Shown piece by piece: positions 1 to 49,294 of a DNA stretch of 64,000 nucleotides. A program made the position numbers and the translations under genes. Source of the stretch: Candidatus Sabulitectum silens (GTDB lineage Bacteria; Fermentibacterota; Fermentibacteria; Fermentibacterales; JCC-6); assembly GCA_001875255.1 (NCBI GenBank), contig MJAN01000003.1, forward strand, positions 53,186-117,185, in the 5' to 3' direction. Below the pieces are notes generated by a model. It had not been told where the DNA came from, made no database searches, and saw only the letters and a list, made by a program, of their open reading frames with translations. How positions within the stretch are numbered: position 1 is the first letter of the stretch; every line of letters begins with the position of its first letter.

Positions 1-930
1 GGCTGCGGTAGTGGCTTCTCATTATGTAGAGCCTTACCACCATGGGATCCCACTCCTTGAACAGATCTCTCAGAAGGGTGAAGTTTCCAAGGCTCTTGCC
101 CATCTTCTGCCCGTTGACGGTCACCATATTGTTGTGGAACCAGTACCTTACGAAGGGCTTGCCTGTGATCGATTCCGACTGTGCGATCTCGCACTCGTGG
201 TGGGGAACGAGTTCTCCAGCCCTCCTCCGTGTATGTCAACGGTGTCTCCGAGGTATCTCATGGACATGGCGGAGCACTCAAGGTGCCAGCCGGGGTATCC
301 CCAGCTCCATGGGCTGTTCCATTTCAGGATGTGGTCATCCCCTGCCTCTTTCCAGAGGGCGAAGTCCCTTGGGTCCCTCTTGCCCTCCGCCGCCGCTACC
401 CTTGTTCCGGACATCTGGTCCCCGCCGGTCCTGCCGGAGAGCTTTCCGTAATCGGGGAAGGATGAAACGTCAAAGTACACATCACCTCCTGAAACATAGG
501 CGTTGCCATTCTCAAGCATTTTCTTCACCATTTCTATCTGCTCGGGAATGTGACCGCTTGCCCTGGGTGAGATGTCCGGCCGACGGACGTTCAGGGCGTC
601 CATGTCGCGAAAGTAGCTGGCTGTGTACTTCTCGGCGATCTCCATGGGCTCCAGCTTCTCCAGCCTGGCCTGCTTCTGAAGCTTGTCCTCACCGGCGTCG
701 GCGTTGTCGGTAAGATGCCCTACATCGGTGATGTTCTGCACGTACCGCACCCTATGGCCCAGGTGCCTCAGATACCTTACCAGGACGTCGGAGCAGACAT
801 AGCTCTTGCCATGCCCCAGATGGCTGTGGCCGTAGACCGTTGGTCCGCAGACGTAGATGCCCACGAAGGGGGGATCAAGGGGCTGAAACTCTTCCTTCTT
901 CCTTGTGATGGTATTGTAAATGGATAACAC
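1..930 (-). CDS. cysS: cysteine--tRNA ligase (partial, 3' end beyond window start; one apparent frameshift near 185-195)
   Basis: ORF 148..930 (GTG start) carries the class I aaRS HIGH region [17 protein letters not shown]. After a frame change inside a ccccacc run near 190, the protein continues [12 protein letters not shown]...[12 protein letters not shown] (KMSKS-type) to position 1. Confidence 0.9.
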
Positions 931-1920
931 TAGAGGGCTCCCTTCAGGTAGTCGATCTGCATCGAGACCCGTACCTTCTCCATGGTCTCCCCGCCGGCTT
1001 CCACCGCCCTTCGGGTTCCCTGCCTGAGTATCTCTTCGATGACCCCGGGTCTCTGGAATTCCTTCCTTCGCTCCCTGATGGGTTCCAGCAGGCTTCCAGC
1101 TTGTTCGCCAGGTTCTTCTTGCAGGCGACGCATCCCACTTCCCCGGCTCTGCAGGCGGTCTCTATCCCGGGGACCTCTTCGGCGTTGAAAGCCTGTGGTA
1201 GGCAAAGATCGTGCAGATCTCAGGGTGGCCCGGATCGGTCTTCCTGATCCTGGCGGGGTCGGTGACGGCGCTCATGACCTTCTTCCGGATCTCATCGGGG
1301 TTGTCCTTGAGGTATATGGCGTTCCCCAGGGACTTGCTCATTTTCGCGTTGCCGTCGAGACCCACAAGCCTGGAAACCTCGCTCACCATGGCCTCAGGCT
1401 CGGGGAAAACCTCGCCGTAAAGCTCGTTGAACCTCCTCGCCACGAACCTTGTAACCTCCACATGGGGCAGCTGGTCCTCCCCCACTGGAACGAGGTTCGC
1501 CCTGCAGAACAGGATGTCCGCCGCCTGGCTTACGGGATATCCCAGGAAGCCGTATGTCATGTCCGTGTAGCCGTACTGTTTAGCCTCGGTCTTTATGGTG
1601 GGATTGTGCCTCAGGCGGCTGACCGTGGTGTAAAGGCCGAAGAGCACCGTAAGTTCCGCTATCTGTGGGACCATGCTCTGAACGAAAATGCTGACCTTGT
1701 CGGGGTCGAGCCCGGCGGAAAGGTTATCCAGGGCCACTTCCCTTACATTTTCGCCCAGGAGCTCCGGTGTCTCCCAGTGGGTGGTCAGGGCCTGCACATC
1801 CGCCACTATGATGAAGGTGTCGTACTGTTCCTGAAGCCTCACCCTGTTCCTGAGTGAGCCAACATAGTGACCGAGATGGAGCGGGCCGGTTGGCCGGTCG
1901 CCGGTAAGAATTCGTTTCAT
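930..1920 (-). CDS. trpS: tryptophan--tRNA ligase (two apparent single-base frameshifts near 1170 and 1095)
   Basis: N-terminus ILTGDRPTGPLHLGHYVG and KMSKS are in ORF 1162..1920. The C-terminal GCVACKKNLANKLE and PIRERRKEFQ...VRVSMQIDY lie in two other frames (ORFs 944..1138, 930..1205). Both breaks restore by adding one base to a short homopolymer. Confidence 0.9.
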
Positions 1921-1933
1921 CTGATGGGTTTCC

Positions 1934-2942
1934 TTAAGAGTTGATCTTTACCGGTGAATCGGGGTCCCTGAAGTTCCTCAGGTCGATCTCTCCGGTGTGT
2001 TTGTCGATGATGTTCAGCACGTTCTCAACGGTTTCCCGAACAGCGGGACAGACCATGGTATACCCCTCGAGATACCTTAGCGTCCGGGGAATGTGCTGAA
2101 GATATTTCTTCCTTCCCAGGGCCCTGTACTGGTAGGCGAAGGTGCCCAGGGCCTTGAGGTTCCGCTGCAGGGCGGCGAAAACGAACTCGAACATGTTCGC
2201 CCCGTTTATCCCCAGTATGAATGCCTGGGCCATGCCCCTCCAGTGGTCGCCGCAGTCCCGGTAGCTGTCACGGAGAATGCTGGCCAGGTCGTAGCAGGGC
2301 GGACCCTGCCGGGCATCCTGCCAGTCTATGATGAAAACCGAATTGTTCTTGATCATGAGGTTGGCCGAGTGGTAATCCCGGTGGGTGAACACCGACCTCC
2401 GGTTCCCATGGCCCTTTCGCAGAGCTCCCTCATCAGCCTCTGGGTTTCCATCAGTTCGTCTACAGGAACCCGAAGCAGTCTGAAGAACAGGTGTTCGAGG
2501 GTATGCTCCAGCTCCGCCATGAAAAACTGGTGGTGAAGTACCTTCTGCCGGCGATGCTTCCGCTGGACTTTATGGGGTTGATCTCCCTCTGAAGCTTCCT
2601 CAGAAGGCCCAGGGCCTGCTGAAGCATCTTCGTGTACTCGGCGTCGTCCTTTATGTCGCAGAGTCGGGTGCTGCCCAGGTCCTCCTGTATGACGTAACCC
2701 CGGGATTCATCGCTTATGATTATCTCAGGAACGGGAAAATCCATTCCCCGGAGAAGGTTGTGTATGTCCAGCCATGGCCAGAGGGGGGTTCTCGTGCTGT
2801 CCATGGCCACATAGGTATCGCCCCGGGACTCTATGCGGTAAAACTCCCTCTTGGAGGCGTCCCCGGCCACAGGTGTGATCGAGTCGATCTCGCCATAGCT
2901 GGCTTTTATCCATCTGGCCAGGTCTTCCATTCTGTCAGTCAA
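1934..2942 (-). CDS. phosphotransferase-family kinase (APH/choline-kinase fold; AmgK-like candidate), frameshift about 2400-2460
   Basis: N-lobe ORF 2460..2942 and C-lobe ORF 1934..2392 with HRDYHSANLMI...IDWQDA (catalytic loop and DxD-type metal-binding motif of aminoglycoside-phosphotransferase-like kinases). Confidence 0.7.
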
Positions 2943-3790
2943 TCAGGGCTCCTTCGAAAAAAACCAGGGCAGAACGGTATCCTCGGCGGCTGCGCCGGGA
3001 AGGACCGATGAGCCTTCAAGAAGCACGGAATTCCTTACCACCGCGCCACCATGAATAATACAAGATGCATCGATAAGGTAAAAGCCCTCCAGTGAAGCTC
3101 CGGCGCGGACCTCGGCCAGGGGATGAACGAATGAACCCCGGGAGAGGGCATAGCGGCGATAGAGCTCCGTTTCCCCGGTGTCGTGCCACCGGGCGGTGGA
3201 GTGGTGACCATGTATGGAAAAACCCCTTTCCCGGAAGGCCTTCCTGAGTCCGGTAAAAAAGCCGGGGCCGGTACCCGGTGCCCCGGCGCATCGGGCAACC
3301 TCCGGGGAGATAACGCTCACCCCGGCATAATGGGCCCGGGTGCCGGAAACCGACAGGGTGCCGTAGTTACCAGTTTCGGGAAATTCGGCGGTGAGCACCG
3401 TCCATCGGGAGTTCAGGCTGATGTGATCCAGAAGAAGGTCGGCCAGGGGGATATCCATGACGAAATCGGTGTTGCATAGGATCCAGGTTCCCTGAAAAAC
3501 ATCCTGATTCAGCCCAAGGGTCCCTTTGCGCCCAGGGGGTTCCTCAAGGAAGGAAAGGATCTTTCCAGGCCAGTGTCTGCGAACCTCGGCCATGACCAGT
3601 TCCGGACACCTGGAGGAGTTGAATGCCATTACCTCGGGCTCCAGGCCGGCGAATTGACCCACGAGATTTCCCAGAACGGTGGTTTCTCCTATGGGAAGCA
3701 GGCACTTCGGCCTGGCAAATGAAAGGGGTTCCGCCCTCGTGCCGTAACCGGCGGTGAGGAACAGAACCCCCTGGATCGATCCGGCGGCCG
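2943..3790 (-). CDS. sugar-1-phosphate nucleotidyltransferase (RmlA/MurU-like); start codon not resolved
   Basis: GVLFLTAGYGTRAEPLSFARPKCLLPIGETTVLGNLV, a G-x-G-T-R NTP-transferase signature. The ORF-track N-terminal extension (3791-3944) overlaps the next gene and is probably not translated. Confidence 0.7.
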
Positions 3791-3792
3791 GA

Positions 3793-3993
3793 CTAGCCGT
3801 AGATCTCTTTTCTGTTGCAGCCGCACACCTTAACCCTTCGCCTCTGGGGTCTCCAGGTGTTCTTGGAACCGCTGAGGGAGGCGATATAAACGATTGCCGT
3901 TCTGTCCTCTCCGCAAACCGGGCAGGTTTCCCTGCGGACATCACGGATCTCGTGAGCGAGCTTGGCCGCGAAGGTTCTTTCTTTCTTGGGCAT
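3793..3993 (-). CDS. small zinc-ribbon protein, function unknown
   Basis: 66 aa, basic, with CPVCG ... CGC cysteine pairs. Tightly packed between the nucleotidyltransferase and the GH57-like gene. Confidence 0.4.
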   Translation of the reverse strand: MPKKERTFAAKLAHEIRDVRRETCPVCGEDRTAIVYIASLSGSKNTWRPQRRRVKVCGCNRKEIYG

Positions 3994-5117
3994 TATCTAT
4001 CCTTTCCCGCCATGGCCGGTATTTTTCCTGCAAGCTCCATGACCCTGTCAAGGAGTTCACCCCGGGGGATCCCCGCCAGGGCGGCTTCAATTATCATCAG
4101 TATGCCCCTGCGGACCTGCGAAAATGACTCGCGGCCCGAAGAAGCCCACCACAGAGGGCACGAGTATAACATTTTGTCAACCTCGTCGGCAACCCCGTCC
4201 CGGCGTTTCCCGGTGTAGTGTTCCAGAACGAAGAGGAGAAGGTCCCGGTAGGTCCTGTGGTTTGCGTTTCCCGAGTGATTCCAGAGGGGGTATGGTTCGC
4301 CGGCCTCCATATCGGGAAAGGTGGTCGACCAGCTTCCCGCCGGAAGGCGGGTTTCCTTCAGTGGGAAGCGTTTCAGTATCCTGTCCAGGGAGGATATCCG
4401 TATTCCATCAAGTATTGAGATCTCCTCCAGGAAGGGCAGAAGGAAGGAATCAATGGCTTCCGCCCTGTGATGACCGAAGGTTCTCCATCCATGGCCAGGA
4501 TAACGTAGGAATCATCCTTTCCGGTCCACTGGAAAAGGTCCTGCACCATTCTTTCCGCCATCTCACCGCCGTCATGTCCATGGAAGGATATCCTGTTCGA
4601 CCAGAAATTGCTTCTAAGGAAAACCGCCGTTCCCCCCACCGAGGGGATCCATCTTGATGGTACTTCGCCCTTGGCGTATACCCAGGGCACATCGTCGGTT
4701 ATCGCCCAGTTGTAGCCCAGTTCTCCCAGAACGCGAAGGGTTTCCTCATCCAGGGCCATCTCCGGAGGAAGACACCCCCGGGCCTGTATACCTCCCCGAT
4801 AAGCCTGCTGTTGCCTGAATCGTTAAGTGCCAGCTGGCGGGTGATCTCCTCCACGGGGATAAGGGGAAGATGGGATGATAGGCTCCGCTTGCGGTGAAGC
4901 TGCAGCAGGATAGCCGGGATACTCTTTCAAGTGTCTCAGGAGCAAGTTCCGCCAGCTGTTCCGTCAGGGAAAGGTTCATGTTCACCGTGATCTCGGAATC
5001 GGTCTCGGAAAGCATCTCGAATATAGGTTCGTAGCACTCCCGGTTGATGCGTTTCACAACATCCGGGTCCTGAGTGGGAGGCTGGTAGAAATGCAGGAGC
5101 AGTCCTATGTGTTTCAT
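3993..5117 (-). CDS. glycoside hydrolase family 57-like protein (two apparent frameshifts)
   Basis: N-terminus MKHIGLLLHFYQPPTQDP resembles the GH57 HxHQP start. The remainder is spread over ORFs 4746..5117, 4373..4759 and 3993..4310. Confidence 0.55.
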
Positions 5118-5133
5118 ACAGGTTCATTCTCCT

Positions 5134-5898
5134 TCACGGCCAGGAGGACATCCATTCCCGGAACCAGGTGGAGGCCTCCGCTGCGGAGCCCCCTGAAAGG
5201 GCTATCTCCATGAAACCCTGGCTTCCCCTGAGGAACAGGAGTTCCCTGCCCGAGGGTTCATCGGCATAGCAGCTTACGGTTTTCAGGGGAATGCTCCCTC
5301 CGGAGGTCATCAGGTCTGTCACAACAAGACCCGCCACCTGTTCAGGTGTTAGACTGAGAATGCAGTTGCCGAAGTGATCGGTGTGGAGAACCGAGGCGGC
5401 AAGGCCTTCCGCCGATGGTGCTCCCTGTGGAAAGGGCAGCAGGACCGGGTTATCATGGGGTTCCAGGAAATCGGTCCAGCCCGGGTCCACGGAGAGCCTT
5501 GCGGCGCAGGGGGCGAAGTAGTCCCTTCCGTGGAATGTGTTAGAGGCATTCCTTTCCGGGGGAGGCAGTTTCCAGAAGGAAACGGGTCCGGGGAGAAGTG
5601 AAACAAGGCCATTGTCCGGAGCCACCAGGTACCTGCCCCGCCATAGGGCTGCGAGGCCGAGCCTGTCTGTGCCCACCCCGGGGTCCACCACCACCAGGGT
5701 CACAGAGCCGCAGGGAAGGTGCGGAAGGGCTGCCCGAAGATGGAAGGCTCCATGGAGAACATTTCCCCGCCCCACCTTCGGAGTAAGGTCGATCACCGGT
5801 GTGTCATAACCGGCGAAGGAGAGGATGGCGGCCTTCATCTGGGCGGTGTAGGTATCTTCAGCGCCGAAATCCGAAAGAATGAACACCGGTGTTTTCAT
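5134..5898 (-). CDS. SAM hydroxide adenosyltransferase family protein (DUF62, fluorinase/chlorinase-like fold)
   Basis: Intact 254-aa ORF with FILSDFG...VVDPGVGT motif characteristic of DUF62. Confidence 0.8.
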   Translation of the reverse strand: MKTPVFILSDFGAEDTYTAQMKAAILSFAGYDTPVIDLTPKVGRGNVLHGAFHLRAALPHLPCGSVTLVVVDPGVGTDRLGLAALWRGRYLVAPDNGLVSLLPGPVSFWKLPPPERNASNTFHGRDYFAPCAARLSVDPGWTDFLEPHDNPVLLPFPQGAPSAEGLAASVLHTDHFGNCILSLTPEQVAGLVVTDLMTSGGSIPLKTVSCYADEPSGRELLFLRGSQGFMEIALSGGSAAEASTWFREWMSSWP

Positions 5899-5911
5899 GG
5901 CTGGCTTCCCC

Positions 5912-8168
5912 CTATCTGTGCCTTATGACCACAAGTGTGCGGTCGTCCGCCTGGGCTGCGCCCCCGGAGTGGTCGTCAACGGCCCTTAGGACCCTTTCGA
6001 CTATCTGTTCCGCGTTGAGGTCCCTGTGGTTGAGCACCGTTCCGGTCAGTCCCTGAACACCGAACTCGGAATCATTTTCGTCCATGGTCTCGGTGATGCC
6101 GTCGGTATACAGTACCAGAACATCCCCGGATCGAACCTGCCGGGTTCCGAAATCGTAATCGGAGTCCTTTATCACCCCCATCAGCAGGCCGCCCTCACTC
6201 AGCTCTTCCACATCCCCTGACCGGGAAATGAGCAGCGGGGGGTTGTGACCGGCGTTGCAGAAGGTGAGCATACCGCTCCGGGTATTGAGCACACCATAGA
6301 AAAGGCCAACCAGGCTGGATACCTCGGCCCCTACGGTGAGATCGGAATTAACCCGCTTCATTATCTGGGAAATATCGAAGAGACTCTTGACGCTGGCCCC
6401 AAGGGTTCCCTTCATGCCCGCCATGGTCAGAGCGGCGGGTATCCCCTTCCCGGCCACATCCGCCACTGCGATCCCCAGATTCCCCGTCTGGAAGGGTGAA
6501 GAAATCATAGTAATCGCCTCCCACTTCCCGGGCGGAACCGTAGTAAACCCCGATATCATAGTTCTCATATCTGGGGCTTCCTTGGGAAGAAGCCCCGCCT
6601 GGATCCTCCGGGCAGTACCCAGTTCCTCCGCCAGGGAATCCCCGCCGGAAAGCCTTCCCAGATAGAGATCGGGAAGTTTCTCACGGAGTTCCCTGGAGTT
6701 GGTTACCGAGGGATGACCGGTAACCAGGTTCACCACGGCGTTGCGAACCTCCTCGGACCTGTCGCCGAGGAGAGCGGTGAGTTTCGCGATAAGCCGGGGA
6801 TCTCAGGTATGTGTTCCAGTGAAGAGATGCAGTCAACGGCCTTCAGGCGAACGGAGCCATCGGGGTCATCCAGGAGTCTGGTAAAGAATGAGGTCTTTTC
6901 CAACACCGACGGCGCCGCGGCTCGGTTGGCTCCCCTCAGAACGCTTATCCTTACATATGGGTCGTCATCTGTTATCAGTTCCGCCGGGGAACCTCCGGAG
7001 AGGGCGCCTTCAGTGGAGAATTCGGCAATGGCCTCCCCCGCCGCGGCCCTGACGGACCTCTCTTTGTCCCGGGAGAGCTTTTCAAGGAAGCCCAGCTCCC
7101 TTTCCTCGGATATCCCAAGTCTTCTGATACCCACTGCCAGGGCCTTCCTCACAGAGGGATCGATATCGGAAGCAAGGGTATCCATACAGGCATAGGCCCC
7201 GTCGCCGAAGGATGACCTGTTCCAAAGAAGAAGCAGGGAAGCCTGGACCTTTCCTCGACGGTTCCCTTCCCCGCCAGCTGAAGGATCACCTCAAGGGCGA
7301 TCATGGCAACATCCTCCCTGCCCCCGGCCAGCAGCTGGGACAGGGACTCCCTTCCTCCGTATCCTTCGGAAGATATGGTGATCCGAAGGAGTTTCTTCTG
7401 TTCGTCGGGATCCAGTATCCGAATGTAGGGCAGCACCATAGATGCCATCTTGTTGCTCTGGGGCATTTCCTCCGCGATCAGCCCCCAGAGCACTTCCTTT
7501 TCACCGGAGTTCAGGTCTTCATAGTTCATGAGCATGCACTGGGCAACCCTTCGCAGGTCGTTCTCCGGGATGTTCGAAAAAAGCGTTTCCCTTATGGAGG
7601 GATCGAAGAACCGTATCCTGGCCCCGATGGTGTAGGCAACTATGCCCCGTCCTCCGTCTGGAAGCCTCTGCATGAGAAGCCAGAGCAGGTCCCCCGGTTC
7701 CCCTTCGAAATCCCCGGGCTGCCTGTTCATGAGTCCCCGGACCAGGGACTGCAGTTCAGCGGTGTTCTCCGAAGCAAGGGTCTCGTTGACCACCGCCATT
7801 TCCCTTTTGGAAAGCTCGGGGAAACGCCTGCCCAGAAGGAACAGAAGGAACCCCCGCACCGTGGAGGAGCCGTCGTCTATGAACCTGTCCACGAAACCGC
7901 CGGGATCACCGGCCATGCCCCACAGGTCGATACTCTGAAGAAGGTAGCCCCTGACCCTTTCATCGGGATCGGAGGCGGCGGCTTCCACCAGGTCCCTGAA
8001 GTAGTGGTCCTTCCTGAGCCAGGGATTGCCCAGGGCAACCGCCAGGGCCCTTTTTGACTCCACCGGACCGGATTCCAGTATGTGCCTGCACAGTCCCTCG
8101 GCGGCCCTGTCGAATGCCTCACGATCGGAAAGGAGCATTGCGAAAAAGTCCGCAAGATTGTCCTGCAT
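5912..8168 (-). CDS. HEAT-repeat domain fused to PP2C-type serine phosphatase (SpoIIE/RsbU family); frameshifts near 6735 and 7170
   Basis: ORFs 7149..8168 and 6730..7185 carry repeated xVRxxAxxAL HEAT/PBS-lyase-type units. ORF 5912..6736 carries the SpoIIE signatures LLPKEAPDM...GIAVADVAGKGIPAALTMA...YTDGITE. All are in series on one strand with no gaps. Confidence 0.7.
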
Positions 8169-8304
8169 GGGCTCCCGTGAAGCGGAAAAAGAAGTCTGGA
8201 CTTCTCCGAGGAAGAGAGGTGTCTGTACATGTGGGCAATGTTGTAGCCGGCCCTTCTGTGACCTGCGTCCCTGCTGTTTAGAAGGGTTTCCATCACAACC
8301 CTTA

Positions 8305-9525
8305 TCAGAGGGCTTCCCCCCCGGACAGTTCCGCCATGCCCCGGTCTACGGCGCTGAGTACAAGCGTGTCTCCGCTGCACAGATGGGCATTCCCATCGAT
8401 GGATAGCCTGCGGAAGGGAGATTTGCCCTGTGCCGCGGCGGTATTTGCGTACATTTCTTCCAGAAGGGTCTCCGAGGGGAAGGTTTCCCTCAAAAGGAAA
8501 TGAAGCCTTGACCATATCTCCGAAAGGGCGGACTTGAACACCGATTCCGGCACTATGGGTTCGAACAGGGAGAGCAGTATCAGTTCTGCCTTAGAGAAAA
8601 GGTCGAGGTCCTTGAAGGAGGCCAGGACCTTTTCGCCCTGTTCTATTCTCCACTGTCTGTTGGTCTCCGGGGATGGAAGTTCCACATGGGCGTCTCCGAA
8701 AAGGCTGAAGAGCCCGGCCATCCGGGGATCGGAGGAAGAGAGCACCACCCGTCTTCTGGAGTCGGTGGCCCTCAGGATGATGGTGAAGACCGAATGGAAA
8801 AGATGCAGGGGGTGTATTTCGGTCTGCTTCCTTATGGAATCGATATCGAAGAGAATGGCGCAATCCTCGGGGCCCCTCAGCTTTCTCTCCACGTTAGGGG
8901 CAACCACGTTTTCCTCAAGAAGCTCCATGGGAACTAGACCCTGGTCCGCCGCCTCCATGAGAAGAAGCCTTGCCATTGTGGTCTTTCCCGCCCCGAGGGA
9001 ACCGGACAGACACACGAAACCCCTGTCCCTGAAGATCGACGAGGCGCGGAGTAAACTCTCACGGTCTACGGATTCCCCGGCGACACCCTTCCATGACCGG
9101 ATGAGCTCTTCACCGGATGGATAAGAGTTCAGCCCCCGGTTGAGACCCTTCAGCCACCCCTGGACCGAGTTGAGTACCAGGGAGACCATATCCGCCCTGT
9201 CCTTGTAGGTCCAGCACCTGTTCCATTCCCTGAGCTTGGAGAAAATGGGCTCGGAATAGGACGGTTCTCCCGTTACCAGGGCACCGATGGGAACCCCCAT
9301 GCGGAACAGCGAGAAGAAACGGGACCTTGCCCCTGCGGAGGGTGAACTGCCTATCAGCAGCAGGGCGGCATCGGGAACCGTACCGGTAAAGCCCTGCACC
9401 AGAGTAACCGCCCCGGCCCATTCAGGCGGGCGCAGCTTCCCCGCCTGTGAAACGAAGACCGAATCCTCCCCATCGGGAAGAACGCCGGCATCCGCCCATA
9501 CGAGCAGCTCGAAACTGTCAGGCAT
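8305..9525 (-). CDS. P-loop NTPase of unrecognised family with non-canonical N-terminal domain
   Basis: Intact 406-aa ORF. Walker A CLSGSLGAGKTTMARLLL, putative Walker B CAILFDID. The N-terminal ~100 aa (LLVWADAGVLPDGED...AALLLIGS) shows no recognisable catalytic motif. Sits between the RsbW-like kinase and the PP2C phosphatase. Confidence 0.6.
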   Translation of the reverse strand: MPDSFELLVWADAGVLPDGEDSVFVSQAGKLRPPEWAGAVTLVQGFTGTVPDAALLLIGSSPSAGARSRFFSLFRMGVPIGALVTGEPSYSEPIFSKLREWNRCWTYKDRADMVSLVLNSVQGWLKGLNRGLNSYPSGEELIRSWKGVAGESVDRESLLRASSIFRDRGFVCLSGSLGAGKTTMARLLLMEAADQGLVPMELLEENVVAPNVERKLRGPEDCAILFDIDSIRKQTEIHPLHLFHSVFTIILRATDSRRRVVLSSSDPRMAGLFSLFGDAHVELPSPETNRQWRIEQGEKVLASFKDLDLFSKAELILLSLFEPIVPESVFKSALSEIWSRLHFLLRETFPSETLLEEMYANTAAAQGKSPFRRLSIDGNAHLCSGDTLVLSAVDRGMAELSGGEAL

Positions 9526-9535
9526 CAGAGCTCCG

Positions 9536-9952
9536 TCAGTTAAGAGGCCAGATAAGCGTGGCCCGGGTCTTTCCTTCGGGGTTCAGGCCGTAGTCGAGCC
9601 ACCTGGCAAGGTTCCTGGCGATAAGAACACCCCTGCCGCGGCAGTTGATGAGCTCCTCTCCCTCGCCGGGCCTGTGGCCCAGCTCGGCATCGGGCTGCCA
9701 GCTCCCGCAGTCGTCCACCATGAACTGAAGCCTTCCCGGGAAGGCATCGATGGAAATGGTGACCGTTTTCGCAGGGTCCCCGGCATTACCGTGTTCCATA
9801 CCATTCTTCACCACTTCCATCACCGCTATGGACAGGCTGGTGACATCCTCTTCCTCAACCCCGGCTGCAAGGCCGACTTTCTCTACGAAAACCTGAATGG
9901 TCTCAAGAAGAAGCTCATCCCCCGGAACGGTGAGTACTATTCCCTTAAGCAA
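9536..9952 (-). CDS. anti-sigma-factor-type serine kinase (HATPase_c, RsbW/SpoIIAB-like)
   Basis: 138 aa with N-box-like VMEVVKNGMEHGN and G-box GRGVLIARNL, typical of GHKL anti-sigma kinases. Confidence 0.85.
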   Translation of the reverse strand: MLKGIVLTVPGDELLLETIQVFVEKVGLAAGVEEEDVTSLSIAVMEVVKNGMEHGNAGDPAKTVTISIDAFPGRLQFMVDDCGSWQPDAELGHRPGEGEELINCRGRGVLIARNLARWLDYGLNPEGKTRATLIWPLN

Positions 9953-9954
9953 GA

Positions 9955-10296
9955 TCAGCCCTTCAGGCTTTCAAGTGCTTCCTGCTCGTCGGTGTAGGTC
10001 TCGAAGATGGTTATGAGCTTGGTGATTATGAAGAGCTCGTGGATCTTCTTGGTGGCGTTGAGAATAGCCATTTTTCCGCCAACTCTGGAGATGGATGTAT
10101 GTCCGCTGACAAGGACTCCCAGCCCGGAACTGTCCATCCAGCTCACTCCGCCGAGATCCAGGAGAACATTGCCCATGTCGTTGTTCACAGCGGTCTGGAA
10201 AACGGTCTGGAGCTCCATGAGATCCGGGCCGCTGATGACCTTGCCGTGGAGCCTTATTATCTTGATGCCTTCCTTCATTTCCTCTTTGATCTTCAC
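9955..10296 (-). CDS. STAS-domain anti-sigma-factor antagonist (RsbV/SpoIIAA-like)
   Basis: KIIRLHGKVISGPDLMELQTVFQ...LLDLGGVSWMDSSGLGVLVS (conserved phosphorylatable Ser in the DSSG context). The likely GTG start at 10296 sits 6 nt after AAGGAGG. Confidence 0.85.
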   Translation of the reverse strand: MKIKEEMKEGIKIIRLHGKVISGPDLMELQTVFQTAVNNDMGNVLLDLGGVSWMDSSGLGVLVSGHTSISRVGGKMAILNATKKIHELFIITKLITIFETYTDEQEALESLKG

Positions 10297-10302
10297 TGTA
10301 AC

Positions 10303-10309
10303 CCTCCTT
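10303..10309 (-). promoter_or_regulatory. Shine-Dalgarno (AAGGAGG) for the STAS gene and downstream partner-switching operon
   Basis: Reverse complement of 10303..10309 reads AAGGAGG, followed after 6 nt by GTG in frame with the STAS ORF. Confidence 0.5.
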
Positions 10310-10507
10310 GAAAGAGATCCGTTGAAATTCACCAACTCATGAAGAATAGATAATTATCGGGCCGATGTCATGAGCAGAGAACAAAGTCCCTCCAGTTCAC
10401 AAGGCCTCTGCCCTCCAGGAACGCCCTTATCCGCTGTCTTGCTCCGGGTTCCCTGGAGGCTCCCAGGACTGGGATTCCGTCGTGGTGGTCCCAGGTGCTG
10501 CCCGGTA

Positions 10508-11374
10508 TCACCGGAGCCCCCTCAACAGCGGTCTGGTAATCCTTTCCACCGGAGCCAGGAAAGCCGCTATGGAAAACCCCTCCCTTTTCATGTGGCCGGA
10601 GAGGCGCCTGGCGCACTGGCCGGTGCCGGCGATGTATACCCTTTTGTCGGCGAGGCAGGGCACATGCTTCAGATACATCGCCCTGGTCTTGTAAAAGGAG
10701 GTAAGGGAATACATGGGGGAACTTCGGCTGAAACGCTCCCTTCTCTCCCTCCAGGCCAGGAGCGTCTTCGGTACCCTGTAGAATCCGTATCCCGTGCTCC
10801 ACAACCTGAGCCAGAGCTCATAATCCTCGGGAAGCCCTATGTCCCGGTATCCACCGGCCTCAAGGACGCCCTTCCTGCTGTAGAACGCCGTGGGATGGGG
10901 AACCGGGCTTTCGATGAAAAGGGAGTGTTCTATTTCCTCCGGCGTCTCCGTGGCATTGATCCAGCTTTCATACCGTCTGTAACCCCGGCTTACCAGCCTA
11001 TCTGGAAAACAGCGGACCCGGGATGTTATGATGGTCCTTTCCCCCAGCTTCTCCCCGGCACGGTGCTGAAGCATTAGCCTTTCCGGATGGCAAATGTCGT
11101 CACTGTCGAACCTGGCGATCCATTTGCCCCCTGCCTGCCCAAGCCCGGTATTAAGGGCCTGGACGAAACTGCCCTTGCAGTCCAGCAGCCTGAACCGGGG
11201 ATCCGCGGAGGCGTATTCTGCGGCTATCCTTCGGGAACCGTCCCTTGACATGTTGTCCAGCATCAGCACCTCGAAATCGGTAAAGGTCTGATCGACAAGG
11301 GATTGAAGAGCCCTTTGAATAAAGTCACCGGTGTCCTTGAATGGCATTACAACGGAAACCGCAGGGGCAACCAT
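10508..11374 (-). CDS. family 2 glycosyltransferase
   Basis: VSVVMPFKDTGDFIQRALQSLVDQTFTDFEVLMLDNMSRDGS...FDSDD, a GT-A fold DxD-type signature. Confidence 0.8.
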   Translation of the reverse strand: MVAPAVSVVMPFKDTGDFIQRALQSLVDQTFTDFEVLMLDNMSRDGSRRIAAEYASADPRFRLLDCKGSFVQALNTGLGQAGGKWIARFDSDDICHPERLMLQHRAGEKLGERTIITSRVRCFPDRLVSRGYRRYESWINATETPEEIEHSLFIESPVPHPTAFYSRKGVLEAGGYRDIGLPEDYELWLRLWSTGYGFYRVPKTLLAWRERRERFSRSSPMYSLTSFYKTRAMYLKHVPCLADKRVYIAGTGQCARRLSGHMKREGFSIAAFLAPVERITRPLLRGLR

Positions 11375-12165
11375 TCAGCGCATTCCTTCATAGGCATCGG
11401 CGAGGTCTGAAACGGTGATGACCGGAGGGCTGCAGGCAAGCCCCACGCAGAGCTGGGCATAGGGCCAGCCGGTCATGGGAAGATAGGCCTCTTCCATCAG
11501 AAGGGAGTCCCCGGGAAGTGTAGGGTCCAGGATGTCCACATTGTCACCGGCCAATCGGTTAGCCTCCGCTGCAAGCTGGCCTGTGAGGGGGTCTCCCGGG
11601 GGGCCCACCACATAAACATGGATATAGATCTCCTCCTCAGGGGGGAGGGGCTCCCCAGCGGAGGCTCCGTAGAGCGCGGCAGAGAACCATTCCCCGCTCC
11701 GGGCTCCCACGGCCCTTCGGGACTCTTCACCCCCGCCGTCGAGAACAATGGTAACCGGAAGTGCGTCAGGCAGACCGTATCTGGCTGAAACGGTTTGCGC
11801 TTCGGAGGGGTTCAGCCATACCACCGTGAGACCCACCGGACGGTTCTCAAGGAAACTGCTCAGTGTGGAGAGATCGGGATCGCCTATGTCCACCGCCAGG
11901 AAAACTGCGTCTCCCTGCAGTTCCCTCTGCAGATGTTCCAGTTCGGGAAGCTCACGAACGCAGGGAGCGCACCAGGTGGCCCAGAAATTAAGAAGGACCG
12001 GCCTTCCGTCTGCTTCCGCCAGCACGCTGTCCAGGGCGGCGATCCCCAGAATAAGTTCGCCCCCTGGCCATACCCTTCGACGGTATGGTGGGAGAGAAGG
12101 ACCACAGGGACCGGAACAAGGAGAAGAAGGGTAAGGGGGATCCAGAAATGCCTTCTCATCTTCCC
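11375..12165 (-). CDS. thioredoxin-like thiol:disulfide oxidoreductase (TlpA/ResA family), frameshift near 12025
   Basis: [20 protein letters not shown] (WCxxC). The N-terminal membrane anchor [22 protein letters not shown] is found in the adjoining frame (ORF 11884..12270). Confidence 0.7.
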
Positions 12166-13031
12166 GCTCCGTGTGAGATGGCCTTCACGGGACAGGAGGA
12201 AATGCACTTTCCGCACCTTATGCACTCGGCACTTGAGGGTTCGAGGTATATGTCGATGCCCATGGGACACACCTTACCGCACTTCCCGCAGCTGACACAG
12301 GAATTCGATACCTTCATCCTCACAACGGAGACCCTGCCGAGGATACCCCATGCGGCCCCAAGCGGACACAGGGCCCTGCAGAAGGGTCTTTCCACTGTAA
12401 CCGCCCATAAAAGAACAAGAACGGCGATGGATGTTTTCCACCAGAACAGAAAGCCCAGTTCGAACTCGATAGACGAGGCAGAGACCAGTGGCCAGCCTGC
12501 CAGGGAAGTTCCCGCGGGACAGACGATCTTACAGAACCAGGGGTCGCCGGCCCCCCCGGGAACGGTCCTTAGGAATGCTGGAAGGGACAGTACAAGAATG
12601 AACAGCAGCGCGTATTTAGCCGGCCTCAGGGAATCCTGAAAGGAAAGACGGGGAGATGGGATCCTGTAAAGAATGTCCTGCAGAAGCCCGAAGGGGCAGA
12701 ACCATCCGCAGGCGAATCTGCCGGCAATGAGACCCACAATGGCGATGAATCCAACCACGGCCCCCACTATGAGGGCGTCCGGACGCATGGTGGCAAGCAT
12801 CCCCCAGAAGTTCGGTGTGGCGAGAATGGACTGAAGGCTGCCAAGGGGACAGGCGAGGACACTTGATGGACAGCTGTAGCAGTGGAGCCCCGGGATCATG
12901 GCAACCTTTGACGAGCCTGTGTATATGGTGCCGGAAACCCACCCGGAAAGGTGCAGATTCGTGGCGAGAAGAGCGCCGAACTGCACTGTCCTCCTCAGGA
13001 GGTTCTGGTTAATCAGCCTATTCCTATGCAT
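12156..13031 (-). CDS. membrane-bound 4Fe-4S polyferredoxin (CcoG/NapH/FixG-like)
   Basis: Multi-TM N-terminus with CGWFCPFG motif, then two CxxCxxCxxxCP clusters ([24 protein letters not shown]). Confidence 0.7.
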
Positions 13032-13140
13032 TCCAGACAGATATTCACGGCTTTAAAGAGAATGGCGAAGGGATCGCCAAGGATGTAGCCCGCCACCATT
13101 AAGGCGGTGGCCAGAAAAAGCAGGAGATACCTGAAAAAAC

Positions 13141-13215
13141 TGGAGGCGGCGACCAGATTCGAACTGGTGAATGGTGGATTTGCAGTCCACTGCCTTCCCA
13201 CTTGGCCACGCCGCC
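13141..13215 (-). tRNA. tRNA-Cys (anticodon GCA)
   Basis: Reverse complement GGCGGCGTGGCCAAGTGGGAAGGCAGTGGACTGCAAATCCACCATTCACCAGTTCGAATCTGGTCGCCGCCTCCA folds as a cloverleaf: 7-bp acceptor stem, GTGGA/TCCAC anticodon stem with loop CTGCAAA, TTCGAAT T-loop, encoded CCA. Confidence 0.9.
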
Positions 13216-13268
13216 TTTCAGGTTCATTGTTCACCGGAGGGCAATCATACAAAACAGAATGCAATAAA

Positions 13269-13907
13269 TCAAGAGCCGTCGGTCCAGTCAAGGCCCACCC
13301 AGAAACCCTCTTCCCAGGTCATGTCCCCCAGTGGCGTCTCAATGGTGGGAAGGGCGAACATGCTCAGCCTTCCGAGGTGTTCCTCGTCCCGGATGTTGCC
13401 GTCTATACCACCCACCGCAAGGGCAAGGTCGATCACACCGGCGGGTCCCAGTATGTCCAGCACCTGGAAGGCGTCGAAGCCGATCCCCAGATCCAGAACG
13501 GCAGTCAGGCCGTCGTCCCCTATGCCGAACTGGCCGGTGAAGAGGCCCTGGGCAACCTGGATAAGTTCCTCGGCGGGGCCCTCTTCGGCATCCATGAAAA
13601 CATCATAGTCCAGGGAAGTGAGTGTAATGGATATCTTCGGAAGCCCGGATTCCCCGGTGTTTGGATTCCTGATCCCAAGGCCGAGATCGAAGTCCATCGG
13701 GCATTCTCCCTGGAGCCAGTAGGAGGCGACCGTTGCCGCCTGGGTAACCGAAAGGCTTCCCAGTTCGGATATGTCTATTCCGCAGATGCTGAAGTCACTG
13801 GTGTTCTCCACCCTGAAGGTTGCCCTCATGAATGAAAGGGCGTCGGTGATCCCGCATCCGGTCAGAAGAAGGAAAGCCGCAGTAAGTAGAATAGCTGTTT
13901 TATTCAT
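13269..13907 (-). CDS. lipoprotein, function unknown
   Basis: Signal peptide ending in the lipobox LLTGC. The acidic mature region has no recognisable catalytic motif. Confidence 0.5.
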   Translation of the reverse strand: MNKTAILLTAAFLLLTGCGITDALSFMRATFRVENTSDFSICGIDISELGSLSVTQAATVASYWLQGECPMDFDLGLGIRNPNTGESGLPKISITLTSLDYDVFMDAEEGPAEELIQVAQGLFTGQFGIGDDGLTAVLDLGIGFDAFQVLDILGPAGVIDLALAVGGIDGNIRDEEHLGRLSMFALPTIETPLGDMTWEEGFWVGLDWTDGS

Positions 13908-14503
13908 GTCCCTCTATCCTCTCAAGTATCTGTTCAGCCGTGGCAGGATCAGCCATGGCGGGGATGTCCTCTATCGGCACCCCCAGAAGATACATGGAAA
14001 CCTCCCCCGCCATACCGAACGCCTCCGGTGTGCCGACCTCAGCCGCGGCTATCACGAAGGCGGCGGAGATATCCAGGCTCCAGGCATCGCTCCGGGGTAC
14101 ATTATCTCCATGGCTCTCTGAAAGGCATCGTTCAGCAAGCCCCGGGAAAGGAGAAGTTCGATTTCCGAGGACACATCCCCGTAGTAGTCACCTTCGCCTT
14201 CATCGATAAGTGTCAGGTCCCGGTTTTCCCCAACGAGATACCAGGCGAAAACATAGTCTGCTGTGAAGGGCATCTGAGAAATCACCTCCAGCGTGCCGTC
14301 CTCCGGGGAATACTCGCAAAAGGTTTCGCGGGATTGAAAGAAAGGGGAAAGGGAAGCCACCGGGACACCTTCACGGAGTCCAGGGCAAGGGCGATATCGA
14401 ATTCCATGGGACCGGTTTCCCTGAAAAGGAGCTCTCCCCCGTCCAGCCCATCAACAGCAATCTGCGGTTGTCCCAGGGCAAGGATAAGCAGGATCACGTG
14501 CAT
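13904..14503 (-). CDS. secreted hypothetical protein (two apparent frameshifts)
   Basis: N-terminal signal-like MHVILLILALG (ORF 14282..14503) continues through ORF 14052..14360 and a third frame to a stop near 13904. Confidence 0.4.
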
Positions 14504-14679
14504 GGTCGCCTCCTTCCGGCGGGTATTCCTCCGGAATCTATATAACCGTCGCCGGGGCCGGAGGCAACGGATGCCTTTACCGGTTGATACCGGAAATTGG
14601 CATTTTTGTTCCCATGCTTTATATGTTGTGCCCTAAAAACTTACGAGATCTATTTGTCAAATTTACGGATGGCTTTGGG

Positions 14680-24797: not shown

Positions 24798-26744
24798 CTA
24801 TCTGCACTCCGCCACTATCTCGATGAAGCTCTCCGCCCTGAGGCTGGCGCCGCCCACCAGGGCTCCGTTAACATCGGTCCCTGCCATTGTAGCCTCGGCG
24901 TTATTCGGCTTGACGCTGCCCCCGTATATTATTCGCAGGTCCCTGGCGAAGTCGTTGCCCTCGAGGTTCGCCACCCAGCCCCGGATCAGTGAATGAACCC
25001 TCTGGGCTTCCTCGGGGGTTGCTGTCTTTCCGGTACCTATGGCCCATACCGGCTCATAGGCGATGACCAGGTTGAAGGGAGTGGCCTCGTCGTGGCCGCC
25101 CAGGGCAGCCTCGATCTGACCCCTTACCACTTCCTCGGTCCTTCCGGCTTCCCGCTCCTCCAGCAGCTCACCCACGCATAGAACGCAGTAGAGTCCGGAC
25201 CTGAGACCGGCTATCAGCTTCCTGCGCACTATTTCGTCGGTTTCACCGAGTATGTGCCTTCTTTCACTGTGTCCGGCCAGGAACCACTTGCATCCGGCCT
25301 CCAGAAGCATTTCCGAGCTTATCTCACCGGTAAAGGCTCCCCTTTCCTCCCAGAACAGGTCTTGGGCGCCCAGATCCACCCCGGCCTTGTCCGCCAGGTT
25401 CGAGAAGGAACGGAGAAGGGTGAAGGGGGGAACACCACCACATCGGCGCCGAAGTAGTTGACGTTCCCCTCGTCAAGGGCGGTGAGATAGTCCATTCCCA
25501 TCTCGTATGTGCCGTTCATCTTCCAGTTGGCGCCTATGAAGGGTTTCACACCGTCTATTTTCAGGTGTTCCAGTGCCGGGAGTTCCTCACCCTGAAGAAG
25601 CTTCAGGGAGGCTCCCCCCCCGGTGCTTACATGGGTTATCTGCTCCGCCACACCGGCTTCCCTCACCGCCCTCATGCTGTCGCCTCCGCCTACCACGGCG
25701 TCGGCGCCGAAACTGGTGGCGTCGGCCATGAAGGCTGCCAGCTTCCTGGTTCCAACATCGAAGGGGGGAACCTCAAAGAGTCCCATTGGGCCGTTCCATA
25801 CGATGGTCTTGCTGTCCATCATGGTCCGCCGGAAGAGATCGATGGTTTCCGGTCCGATATCGAAACCCGCCATGTCCGCCGGAAGATTGTCGTACCGGTA
25901 GGCACCGGCCTGGGAGCCCTCCTCCCTGGACGGGGCACAGATTATGTCCCGGGGAAGCAGAAGGTTCACTCCCCTCTCCTCTGCGGCTTTGATGATATCC
26001 TTCGCGGTCTGTATGCGGTCTTCCTCCACAATGCTTTTTCCGGTTTCCAGCCCCATGGCGCGGAAGAAGGTAAAGGCCATTGCACCGCCCACTATCAGGT
26101 TGTCCAGCTTGGGAAGGACATTCTCGATAAGGGCGACCTTATCGCTGATCTTAACGCCTCCCAGGATCACGGTGTAGGGTTTCCTGGGGTGTTTGATTAT
26201 CTCGCCGAAAACCCTCAACTCCTGCTCCACCAGGAAGCCTACGTATCCTCCGCCCAGTATTCCCGGAATTCCAACCATTGAGGCGTGCTCACGGTGACTG
26301 GTTCCAAAGGCGTCATTCACGTAGATGTCCGCCAGGGCCGCAAGTTTCCTTGAGAAATCGGGATCGTTGGAGGTTTCCTCGGGATGGAACCTCAGGTTCT
26401 CAAGAACGAGCATCTCCCCCGGGGCCAGGCCTGCGGCCATGGCCTCCACCCTTTTTCCTATGCAGTCGTGGGCGAAGAGGATCCTGGTTTCCTTAAGTAT
26501 TTCCCTGAGCTTCTCCGCCACGGGCTTCATGCTGAACGGGATCCATTTTCCCTCCGGGTCTTCCCAGATGGGAGGCGAGGATCACTGGAGAACCCTGTTC
26601 CGTGAGGTGTCTGATGGTCCTGAGGACGGACCTTATCCGGGTGTCGTCAAGTATTTTGCCACCCTCGATGGGTACATTGAGGTCCGCCCGGAGGAAGATC
26701 CTTTTCCCTCCGGTCTTCAGGTCTCTTATTGAGGGGTACTGCAT
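24798..26744 (-). CDS. pgk/tpiA: phosphoglycerate kinase fused in frame to triosephosphate isomerase (PGK::TIM); frameshifts near 26500 and 25380
   Basis: PGK N-terminus SIRDLKTGGKRIFLRADLNVPIEGG and core ...GGGDSMRAVREAG...STGGGASLKLLQGEELPALEHLK. It runs without a stop into the TIM N-terminus IDGVKPFIGANWKMNGT. TIM C-terminus ...HSERR...AYEPVWAIGTGKTATPEEAQ... is in ORF 24798..25379. Confidence 0.85.
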
Positions 26745-26745
26745 C

Positions 26746-27761
26746 TCAGAATCCCTTTTTGGCCATCTTGACCAGCATGTCCACCATTCTCGCGGAGTAT
26801 CCCAGCTCGTTGTCATACCAGGAAAGGACCTTGAGCATCCTGCTGCCCATCATTCTGGTCACATCGCCGTCAAAGACGCTGCTGTGGGGGTTGCCCACCA
26901 CATCGGAGGAAACTATGGGCTCTTCGGAATACTGAAGCACGCCCTTGAGGGTTGTTTCAGCGGCCTGCTTCATGGCGGCGTTCACCCCTTCGGCGGTGGC
27001 GTCGGTCTTCAGTGTGCAGACCAGGTCAACCAGTGAGCCGTCGGGTACCGGGACCCTTACGGCCATGCCGTCGAGTTTGCCCTTCAGCTCCGGGATCACC
27101 AGGGAAACCGCAGCGGCGGCGCCGGTGGTGGTGGGTATCACATTCACAGCGGCGGCCCGGGCCCTGCGCATGTCGGAATGGGGAAGGTCGAGTATCCTCT
27201 GGTCGTTGGTGTAGGCGTGGATGGTGGTCATTATTCCCAACTCTATGCCGAAGGTGTCGTGAAGCACCCTGGCAACCGGAGCCAGGCAGTTCGTGGTGCA
27301 GCTGGCGGTGCTTACGACATGGTGCCGCTCGGGATCGTAGAGGTCACAGTTCACACCGTAGACAACGGTGATGTCAGCCCCGGGGGAACCCTTGGCAGGG
27401 GCGCTTATCAGCACTTTCTTTGCCCCGGCCTGAATGTGAAGGGCGGCCTTTTCCCTGGTCCTGAAGAACCCGGTGGACTCAACCACCATGTCAACGCCCA
27501 TTTCCTTCCATGGAGCTTCGCCGGTTCGGGCTGGCTGAGTACCCTGAAGGAGTCTCCCCCGGCCTTTATGCTGTCGCCCTCAACGGCCACTTCACCGGGG
27601 AATCTGCCGTGGACGGAATCGTACTTCAGAAGATGAGCAAGCATCTTCGGGTCGGTGAGGTCGTTCACCGCCACTACGTCAATCTCGTCGTGCTTCAGGG
27701 ATTCTCTGTAAACCAGTCGTCCGATTCGACCAAATCCGTTTATTGCTATCTTAACAGACAT
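26746..27761 (-). CDS. gap: glyceraldehyde-3-phosphate dehydrogenase (one frameshift near 27510)
   Basis: [16 protein letters not shown]... then after the break ...VVESTGFF...ISAPAKG...[13 protein letters not shown]...WYDNELGYS. Adding one C in a CC run restores the frame ([12 protein letters not shown]). Confidence 0.9.
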
Positions 27762-27774
27762 TATTAACCTCCTA

Positions 27775-28811
27775 TCAGCCGAAGAATAGTTCCGCTGTTT
27801 CTATGTCAGATTCCGGAACGGTCTTCAGTGTTCCCACAGCCTCGGAAAGGTCCGCGGCAACAACTTCCGTTCCCCTTAGAGCAGCCATTTTTCCGTTCTC
27901 CCCGGATTCGGCGATCTCCACTGCCCTCACCCCCAGCCTTGTTCCCAGGACACGGTCGAATGCCGAGGGACTGCCTCCCCGCTGAACGTGACCCAGGACC
28001 ACGTGGCGTGTTTCAAGGCCGGTCCTGTCCTGAATTTCGTTCTTCAGGACCTCGCCGATACCTATCCCCGTACCGAGCTGAACATGGCCAAAGGCATCGG
28101 TTTCCGCCGAGTGGTAGACATGCCTGGCAAGCCCGGGGTCGATGGCCCCTCGGCCACCGCCACAATTGCGTATCTTCTTCCCTGCTCATATCTTTTACGG
28201 AGAGCGTCGCAGAGCTTGTTGGTATCGAACTCCTTCTCCGGTGTCAGTATGAAATGAGCCCCGCCTGCAATTCCTCCATGGAGGGCCATCCAGCCGGCGT
28301 GGCGGCCCATGATCTCAACCACCATCACCCGTTCATGGCTTTTCGCGGTGGTTTTCAGTTTGTCAAGGGAATCCATCACATAGTTAATGGCGGAATCGAA
28401 ACCGAAGGTGAAATCCGTTGCTGAAAGGTCGTTATCTATGGTCTTGGGCACGCCGACCACGGAAACGCCCATTTCCGCCAGTGTCACCGCCACCCCAAGG
28501 GTGTCTTCTCCTCCCACGGCAATGAGAACGTCGATCTCGTTCTTCTCCATGGTCTCCCTGATCCGCTGGAATCCGTTCTCCACCTTCCGGGGGTTGGTGC
28601 GGGATGAGAACAGTATGGTCCCGCCCTGGGTGTGAATGTCCAGAACGCTGTCGCGGTCCAGGCTCACCGAGGTGTCTTCGATGGCGCCCTTCCAGCCCCT
28701 TAGAAAACCGGTCACCCTGTGACCGCCGGCCTCGGCCTTCACCACCACTCCACGAATAACGGCATTGAGTCCCGGGGCGTCGCCTCCGCCTGTCAGTATT
28801 CCTAAATGCAC
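27775..28811 (-). CDS. pfkA: ATP-dependent 6-phosphofructokinase (frameshift about 28060-28130)
   Basis: MHLGILTGGGDAPGLNAVIRGVV...AVGGEDTLG...VGVPKTIDNDL...VVEIMGRHAGW. C-terminal MVLGHVQRGGSPSAFDRVLGTRLG in ORF 27775..28002. Confidence 0.85.
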
Positions 28812-28814
28812 TTG

Positions 28815-49293: not shown

Positions 49294-49294
49294 A

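Follow-up and report, generated by a model that had tools for sequence, protein, structure and literature searches.

Whether a partner switch can take its input from a P-loop NTPase, and whether such an NTPase would act as a separate protein or as part of the phosphatase, is the question raised by a minus-strand locus of Candidatus Sabulitectum silens (Fermentibacterota). The locus lies in a 64,000-nucleotide (nt) stretch of contig MJAN01000003.1 (the window), and a preliminary description made from the sequence alone had read it as four genes, encoding a STAS antagonist, a GHKL kinase, a 406-amino-acid (aa) Walker A/B NTPase and a ~750-aa protein with HEAT repeats fused to a PP2C phosphatase domain. 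It is close to certain that the locus consists of three minus-strand genes rather than four, for the STAS antagonist, the kinase and a phosphatase of 1205 codons at 5912-9525, because 5912-9525 is a single gene interrupted by six 1-nt insertions or deletions (indels). We hold it equally close to certain that this large protein combines a STAND NTPase, HEAT repeats and a PP2C domain. The general proposal, a partner-switching-type operon (STAS, GHKL kinase and PP2C) in which a P-loop NTPase and HEAT repeats also occur, is thus supported, while the four-gene layout and the 137-nt spacer within it are artefacts of single-base assembly errors.

The reading frame of the phosphatase gene

In the raw map of open reading frames (ORFs), the NTPase ORF at 8305-9525 carries both Walker motifs and ends in a stop codon, and the public record P0001 annotates the same 406-aa product. 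The rest of the gene, from 5912 to 8168, contains the HEAT repeats and the SpoIIE-type PP2C domain that had been reported there, but an intact ORF of ~750 aa is absent; instead, three listed ORFs lie in three frames, at 7149-8168, 6730-7185 (HEAT) and 5912-6736 (SpoIIE, E = 4e-45). Three-frame translation showed that GVYYGSAREVGGDYYDFF is read in another frame, which places an extra, compensating pair of frame shifts inside the PP2C domain. The presumed 137-nt spacer between the two halves (8169-8304, minus strand; aa ~402-448) is coding: it links the NTPase with the HEAT region and specifies GGSPLIRVVMETLLNSRDAGHRRAGYNIAHMYRHLSSSEKSRLLF, a sequence that the relatives conserve within an uninterrupted frame. 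In the related locus L001 (protein P0004), the frame runs continuously from the C-terminus of the P-loop protein across the equivalent of the spacer into the HEAT region, and the window encodes the peptide of L001, GGSPLIRVVMETLL...SSSEKSRLLF, in the third frame; the same peptide is in frame in P0005-P0010. The stretch 8169-8304 is read in the third frame because of two deletions, near 8317 and near 8189.

Intact relatives were found only by exhaustive searching. Searches for homologues by word index, started from either the 406-aa ORF or the NTPase alignment, returned only 3-4 fragments, whereas an exhaustive profile search with the P-loop region yielded six intact proteins of 1203-1206 aa. 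In the intact relatives, Pfam places nSTAND3 at aa ~150-270, HEAT at ~780-940 and SpoIIE at 1013-1204 of one chain. Extended to the related loci, the collection comprised 55 distinct intact proteins of 1202-1206 aa, and every locus that was long enough contained a single open frame from the NTPase to the PP2C domain, 1204-1249 codons in length (1308 in one locus).

To locate the indels, we used as the reference the related locus L059 (NPIE01000961.1), which aligns to window positions 1-14663 at 85% nucleotide identity. Of the 41 indel events in the alignment, about 27 are 1-nt changes that remain uncompensated. With few exceptions it is the window that lacks the nucleotide, usually at a homopolymer, and the events are evenly distributed from position 205 to position 14597. 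Six fall in the phosphatase gene, namely deletions near 8317, 8189, 7234, 6799 and 6572 and an insertion near 6485 (span 6485-8317, minus strand), with positions good to about ±6 nt and most of them at homopolymer runs. These six agree with the six frame changes given by tblastx. The deletion near 8317 lies in a run of G and creates the false stop that ends the "406-aa protein", and that near 8189 lies within a run of T. Repair of the six sites resulted in a 1205-aa protein with zero stops that is identical to the L059 protein at 1112 of 1205 positions. The apparent split of the phosphatase gene is an assembly artefact.

Taken at face value, the raw ORF map and P0001 would describe four separate genes, with a free-standing P-loop NTPase acting in trans. 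However, the stop of the 406-aa ORF comes only after the 1-nt deletion in the run of G, the "spacer" encodes conserved protein, and all 55 of the 55 intact relatives are single ORFs for 1202-1206 aa. A free-standing NTPase is refuted by the intact relatives, the indel alignment and the repaired frame, and the probability that we leave to it is very small. The earlier suggestion that the NTPase gates or scaffolds the kinase-phosphatase pair in trans falls with it, since the NTPase is fused to the phosphatase in the 1202-1206-aa chain of these relatives.

A second alternative holds that the phosphatase gene is a genuine, recent pseudogene in this organism, which would leave the STAS protein and the kinase without a phosphatase. 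The gene has six frameshifts in 3.6 kb, while the STAS gene, the kinase gene and the first 1.2 kb of the phosphatase gene have none, and the relative L001 has lost the GT2 (family-2 glycosyltransferase), STAS and kinase genes together with the N-terminus of the NTPase. Against this, the density of indels inside the gene (1.65 per kb) equals that of the surrounding 14.7 kb (~1.8 per kb); nearly every indel is the deletion of a single nucleotide at a homopolymer; and essential glycolytic genes of the window are split too. The genes split elsewhere are those for phosphofructokinase, 2-hydroxyacid dehydrogenase and glyceraldehyde-3-phosphate dehydrogenase, the GT2 gene near 10516, and a gene that we presume from its sequence, without a Pfam check, to be of the GH57 type. 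Selection points the same way. Relative to L059, the ratio of nonsynonymous to synonymous substitution rates (dN/dS) is 0.05 overall and 0.008-0.10 across six inter-indel segments (six of seven were computable, dS being undefined for the seventh, of 31 codons). Five of the computable segments lie past the first frameshift and fall in the same 0.008-0.10 range, with zero in-frame stops after repair; strong purifying selection thus acts on the sequence beyond the "frameshifts". We regard a pseudogene as very unlikely.

Domains of the phosphatase and its operon partners

The phosphatase gene starts with an ATG at 9525, 6 nt downstream of a GGAG. Its N-terminal alpha/beta domain (aa 1-130; 9136-9525, minus strand) has a flavodoxin-like three-layer fold, and residues P34, W36, A37, D52, R67, P79 and W105 are invariant in the family. 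A response-regulator receiver was considered for this domain and rejected, as the domain lacks a conserved phospho-acceptor Asp at the end of beta-3.

The NTPase module follows (aa ~150-401; 8323-9078, minus strand), with GSLGAGKTT as Walker A and CAILFDID as Walker B. Walker A residues G178, G180, K181, T182 and T183 and Walker B residues D227 and D229 are invariant in the family. The preliminary description had left this P-loop protein unclassified. The window ORF matches Pfam nSTAND3 (PF20720) with 28.6 bits against a cutoff of 27.2, relatives score 28-39 bits, and the profile of the NTPase family also finds bona fide nSTAND3 proteins (P0017-P0020), for which that Pfam model gives 98-155 bits, so that the protein belongs to the STAND class. 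In the AlphaFold2 model (mean predicted confidence, pLDDT, 77), a P-loop core is followed by a helical bundle and a winged-helix-like helix-hairpin-helix unit (helices 290-360, beta-hairpin 371-384, helix 387-400). The structure prediction and Foldseek search that had been suggested for the 8305-9525 product returned as the top match in the PDB the Avs5 filament (9nc9, E = 1.7e-5), followed by REC-AAA+ enhancer-binding proteins; hence it is not an unknown NTPase. As modeled, it has the layout of a STAND protein, in which a P-loop core and helical and winged-helix-like subdomains precede repeats.

The repeats form an all-helical HEAT/ARM region of ~550 aa (aa ~402-950; 6680-8322, minus strand; boundaries approximate), recognized by Pfam HEAT, HEAT_2 and HEAT_EZ on the 6730-7185 piece and at aa ~780-940 of relatives. 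Conservation of this region is moderate (0.52-0.68) and a hypervariable block is absent. The chain ends with a linker helix and a SpoIIE-type PP2C domain (5912-6679, minus strand; Pfam SpoIIE, E = 4.4e-45). The linker (..AEEL.TAR.IQ..LLP) has a conservation of 0.70 compared with ~0.55 in the HEAT region, and the PP2C motifs GGDYYDFF, DVAGKGIPAALTMA, NAGHNPP, YTDGITE and DDRT, as well as DVAGKG, are conserved in the 55 sequences, with all metal-binding motifs present.

The first gene of the operon encodes an RsbV/SpoIIAA-like STAS antagonist of 113 aa (9955-10296, minus strand). As had been noted, an AAGGAGG Shine-Dalgarno sequence lies ahead of it, at 10303-10309 on the minus strand, 6 nt upstream of the GTG start. 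The protein matches Pfam STAS (E = 2e-13) and NCBIfam TIGR00377, the anti-sigma factor antagonist family (60.9 bits, cutoff 53.45). Its closest solved structures are SpoIIAA proteins (1th8_B, E = 1e-12), in which FMDSSGLG aligns with the WMDSSGLG of the window protein; from the S-to-A mutant chain 1tid_B in the structure alignment, the predicted phospho-acceptor is Ser56. The WMDSSGLG motif is identical in at least 98% of the 70 STAS sequences compared, and the relatives are 112-118 aa long, mostly 113.

The second gene, at 9536-9952 on the minus strand, encodes the expected RsbW/SpoIIAB-like GHKL serine kinase (138 aa; HATPase_c_2, E = 1.4e-16; 137-139 aa in relatives). It begins with a TTG 2 nt past the STAS stop codon, and not 3 nt as had been stated; the spacer of 10 nt between the kinase and the next gene was given correctly. 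The profile of the kinase family matched RsbW best (6m36_A, E = 1.1e-10), followed by SpoIIAB (4e-6) and the kinase domain of Rv1364c; no RsbT was among the solved-structure matches. The N box E..N..EHG (E46, N50, H54, G55) and the G2 box RGRG.LIARNLA (R105-G108, L110-A112) are invariant. The locus has the components of a partner switch: a DSSG-type STAS protein, a HATPase_c_2 kinase with N, G1 and G2 boxes and a SpoIIE-family PP2C with metal-binding aspartates, all encoded together. No further STAS or PP2C gene was found within the window.

Conservation and a proposed STAND-gated partner switch

Scans of genome and metagenome collections gave 54 + 23 loci, and every locus with a taxon name belongs to the Fermentibacterota (Hyd24-12: Ca. 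Sabulitectum, Aegiribacteria, Fermentibacteraceae). There is one phosphatase locus per genome in 54 species-level genomes. The preliminary description had called for a check of neighbourhood conservation, and the outcome is favourable: STAS, kinase and phosphatase genes stay together in all ~70 loci with enough upstream sequence, spaced by -4 to 7 nt (STAS-kinase) and -4 to 18 nt (kinase-phosphatase, except 50 and 84 nt in two loci). The sole exception to the order is L001 (ENA contig_133792), where 54 nt (L001:9745-9799) replace ~2.4 kb equivalent to window 9028-11421; the replaced stretch holds GT2, STAS, kinase and the first ~165 NTPase codons, and the redoxin gene abuts the Walker A region. 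On this contig, which is full of frameshifts, the gap reflects either a misassembly or a true loss of sequence, in which case the phosphatase gene left behind is decaying. The best reading of the distribution is that the three-gene operon is ancestral to, and conserved across, the Fermentibacterota. Given its single copy, its constant length and its conservation together with the STAS and kinase genes throughout an uncultured phylum, the module is probably a core regulator of Fermentibacterota physiology.

The nSTAND3 family is shared with Avs5, distant NTPase relatives carry Mrr_cat nuclease domains at the N-terminus, and the fold of the N-terminal domain overlaps those of TIR domains and deoxyribosyltransferases. 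These features would also suit an Avs-like anti-phage or conflict STAND system with the PP2C or the N-terminal domain as its effector. The distribution and evolution of the gene argue otherwise: it occurs once per genome, always at one locus whose housekeeping synteny is conserved in 54 species across the phylum; its product has a near-constant length of 1202-1206 aa and a repeat region without a hypervariable block; dN/dS is 0.05; and it is always paired with the STAS and kinase genes. PADLOC models gave only noise-level matches. On the PADLOC result, the fixed phylum-wide locus and the dN/dS, membership of the Avs/AVAST defence systems was rejected, and we consider an Avs-like function highly improbable. 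Avs5 itself, an nSTAND3 protein with an N-terminal SIR2 effector, is a patchily distributed defence gene. The window protein resembles it, and other nSTAND3 proteins, in the NTPase family and in the helical repeats C-terminal to the NTPase, with NTP-dependent oligomerisation presumed in both, but it differs in the C-terminal PP2C output, the small alpha/beta N-domain, the setting in a signalling operon and the vertical, phylum-wide conservation.

How, then, might the STAND module serve the phosphatase? STAND NTPases are closed monomers that form oligomers once a ligand is bound and the nucleotide exchanged. For RsbU-type PP2Cs, activation follows from regulated dimerisation via linker and switch helices, whatever the upstream sensor (PMC12143880). 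Given PP2C control by dimerisation and STAND oligomerisation, we propose that the NTPase, HEAT arm and N-terminal domain act as a nucleotide-gated assembly switch, in which the STAND module would gate PP2C activity. At rest, with ADP bound, the phosphatase would be kept monomeric or closed by its HEAT arm and N-terminal domain. A ligand at the HEAT repeats or the N-terminal domain would trigger nucleotide exchange and oligomerisation, which would bring the PP2C domains and linker helices together into an active dimer, as in RsbU, RsbP and related phosphatases. Downstream, the kinase would phosphorylate Ser56 of the STAS protein and, when free, hold its target; the PP2C domain would dephosphorylate the phosphorylated STAS protein, and the unphosphorylated form would capture the kinase so that the target is released. 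Taken as a whole, the mechanism would be a partner switch of the RsbV/RsbW/RsbU type with a STAND-gated input phosphatase, a reading that we hold with moderate confidence. It is a more tentative suggestion, which we offer with appreciable doubt, that STAND-ATPase oligomerisation is a previously unrecognised input to partner switching, such that a phylum-wide, single-copy "signalosome" phosphatase senses an intracellular ligand with its HEAT arm or its flavodoxin-like N-terminal domain and couples ATP-dependent assembly to PP2C dimerisation, with a non-adjacent and possibly non-sigma output.

Several observations weigh against this mechanism. First, the nSTAND3 score of the window ORF is barely over the threshold, and, owing to a different orientation of the domains, the TM-scores of the model against solved STAND/AAA+ structures reach only 0.2-0.3. 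Second, the fold of the N-terminal domain, one candidate for signal sensing, is generic only. Third, the G1 box of the kinase is, as in Rv1364c, DxGxW instead of DxGxG. Fourth, no sigma-70-type target gene for the kinase was detected within 10 kb of any locus. This agrees with the earlier remark that no sigma factor gene is adjacent: neither the window nor the 10 kb around each of 81 related loci yielded one, in a search with a single SigF query that could miss extracytoplasmic function (ECF) sigma factors. Fifth, the biochemical steps, the NTP gating, the nature of the signal and the output are all inferred.

At last, the order STAS-kinase-PP2C also fits an rsbS-rsbT-rsbU wiring, the order of these genes in the sigB operon of B. 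subtilis. In such a wiring, the kinase released by the STAS protein would be an RsbT-like activator that binds the N-terminal domain or the HEAT arm of the phosphatase, and the true substrate of the phosphatase would be another STAS protein, with its gene at a different site. In the case of RsbU, activation comes from RsbT bound to the N-terminal region and linker (PMC12143880), and the sigma-70-type search detected no partner nearby for an RsbW-like anti-sigma role. On the other side, the STAS protein is SpoIIAA/RsbV-like (DSSGLG, TIGR00377 above cutoff), the kinase profile is closest to RsbW and SpoIIAB, with RsbT absent from the solved-structure matches, the conserved neighbourhood contains no RsbR-like or RsbX-like gene, and a single STAS protein, with one kinase and one phosphatase, is enough for a closed circuit. 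We therefore judge an RsbS/RsbT/RsbU-like wiring unlikely and retain the RsbV/RsbW/RsbU-type switch. A full stressosome-type RsbR/RsbS/RsbT-RsbU module was rejected separately, the window having a single RsbV-like STAS protein, a kinase nearest to RsbW and no other STAS or PP2C gene.

The proposed switch can be compared with several known systems. It resembles the RsbV-RsbW-RsbU/RsbP (sigma-B) and SpoIIAA-SpoIIAB-SpoIIE (sigma-F) modules of Bacillus in its DSSG-type STAS protein, small GHKL kinase and SpoIIE-family PP2C with a linker helix, encoded together. It differs in that the sensory region of the phosphatase is a STAND NTPase with HEAT repeats, ~1000 aa in total, in place of the four-helix bundle, PAS, GAF, HAMP, receiver or membrane domain of the known systems, in the DxGxW G1 box of the kinase, and in the lack of a sigma gene in the operon or within 10 kb in the single-query search. 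From M. tuberculosis, Rv1364c is similar in that its kinase domain ranks with the closest solved structures, its G1 box is DxGxW and it forms a partner switch without an adjacent sigma gene; unlike that single PAS-PP2C-RsbW-RsbV chain, the present system is divided over three genes and has a STAND ATPase sensor. STAND proteins of the MalT type combine an NTPase module, a helical-repeat sensor and a C-terminal output that is activated by ligand- and ATP-dependent oligomerisation, and PknK of M. tuberculosis is a STAND protein fused to a signalling effector. MalT is the closest analogue in architecture and, probably, in working, with a sequence relationship shown only at the level of the STAND class. 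In contrast to the DNA-binding domain of MalT and the kinase of PknK, the output here is a PP2C that would feed a partner switch.

Consistent with the proposal that the module is undescribed, no description of it turned up in the literature searched. Full-text searches gave no paper in which a partner switch joins a PP2C phosphatase to a STAND NTPase; genome papers on the Fermentibacteria do not mention sigma factors or RsbU and do not discuss the phosphatase; and a 2020 paper on conflict systems has PP2C only in an unrelated GTPase context. Public names for the family are "SpoIIE family protein phosphatase", "RsbU" and "hypothetical protein". Outside the family, the PP2C domain alone (~20% of the query) finds matches, in proteins that carry GAF, PAS or HATPase partners. 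The novelty is a STAND-fused phosphatase within partner switching and STAND signalling, both of which are known, and not a new category. The inputs described for partner-switch phosphatases are PAS, GAF, HAMP, receiver or RsbT-binding domains, all of which appear to control PP2C dimerisation (PMC12143880). A STAND ATPase, the switch of NLR and Avs immune receptors and of MalT, would be an input of a different kind, nucleotide-gated and cooperative, and would link two signalling paradigms that have so far been studied separately. Its biology is inferred, and the phylum has no cultured member. The module itself is clean and conserved and lends itself to direct tests in vitro.

Neighbouring genes and other regions of the window

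The phylum-wide gene order around the operon is Fer4 - redoxin - GT2 - STAS - kinase - phosphatase - SAM_HAT. Downstream, the SAM hydroxide adenosyltransferase gene (SAM_HAT; 5134-5898, minus strand; Pfam and synteny) starts 13 nt past the phosphatase stop codon in the window, and it overlaps the phosphatase gene or follows within ~30 nt in nearly all of ~60 loci; the two genes may be co-transcribed. Promoter and terminator scans of the window stayed at chance level and are uninformative on co-transcription. Upstream, the GT2 gene (10368-11374, minus strand; Pfam and synteny), which comparison with the related locus L002 and the L059 alignment show to be frameshifted near 10516, is found here in most relatives, and a few loci lack it. 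Four Aegiribacteria loci (L035, L038, L040 and L046) have it ~7.7 kb upstream of the STAS gene. In L035, the intervening region (L035:1873-9059) contains a two-component phosphorelay cluster directly upstream of the operon, composed of a PAS histidine kinase, a receiver protein, a receiver-PAS protein and a Cache-HAMP-GAF-PAS hybrid kinase, which may be an added input layer.

Beyond this locus, split genes occur in the window at 1-14663, 24801-28814 and 47428-50572, and raw ORF maps of the window are unreliable. At the rate of ~1.8 single-base indels per kb found in the 14.7 kb aligned to L059, raw ORF maps yield false gene boundaries. In the second of these regions, the minus-strand ORFs for phosphoglycerate kinase (PGK; 25322-26581) and triosephosphate isomerase (TIM; 24801-25472) share ~150 nt, each read in its own frame; the TIM match begins at profile position 38. 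PGK-TIM fusions are known in Thermotoga, and 24801-26581 may be a fusion gene broken by an assembly indel or, equally, two adjacent genes. Two further minus-strand ORFs, 13269-13907 (212 aa) and 2943-3944 (333 aa), have good coding statistics and no Pfam match; the first of them is conserved in L001.

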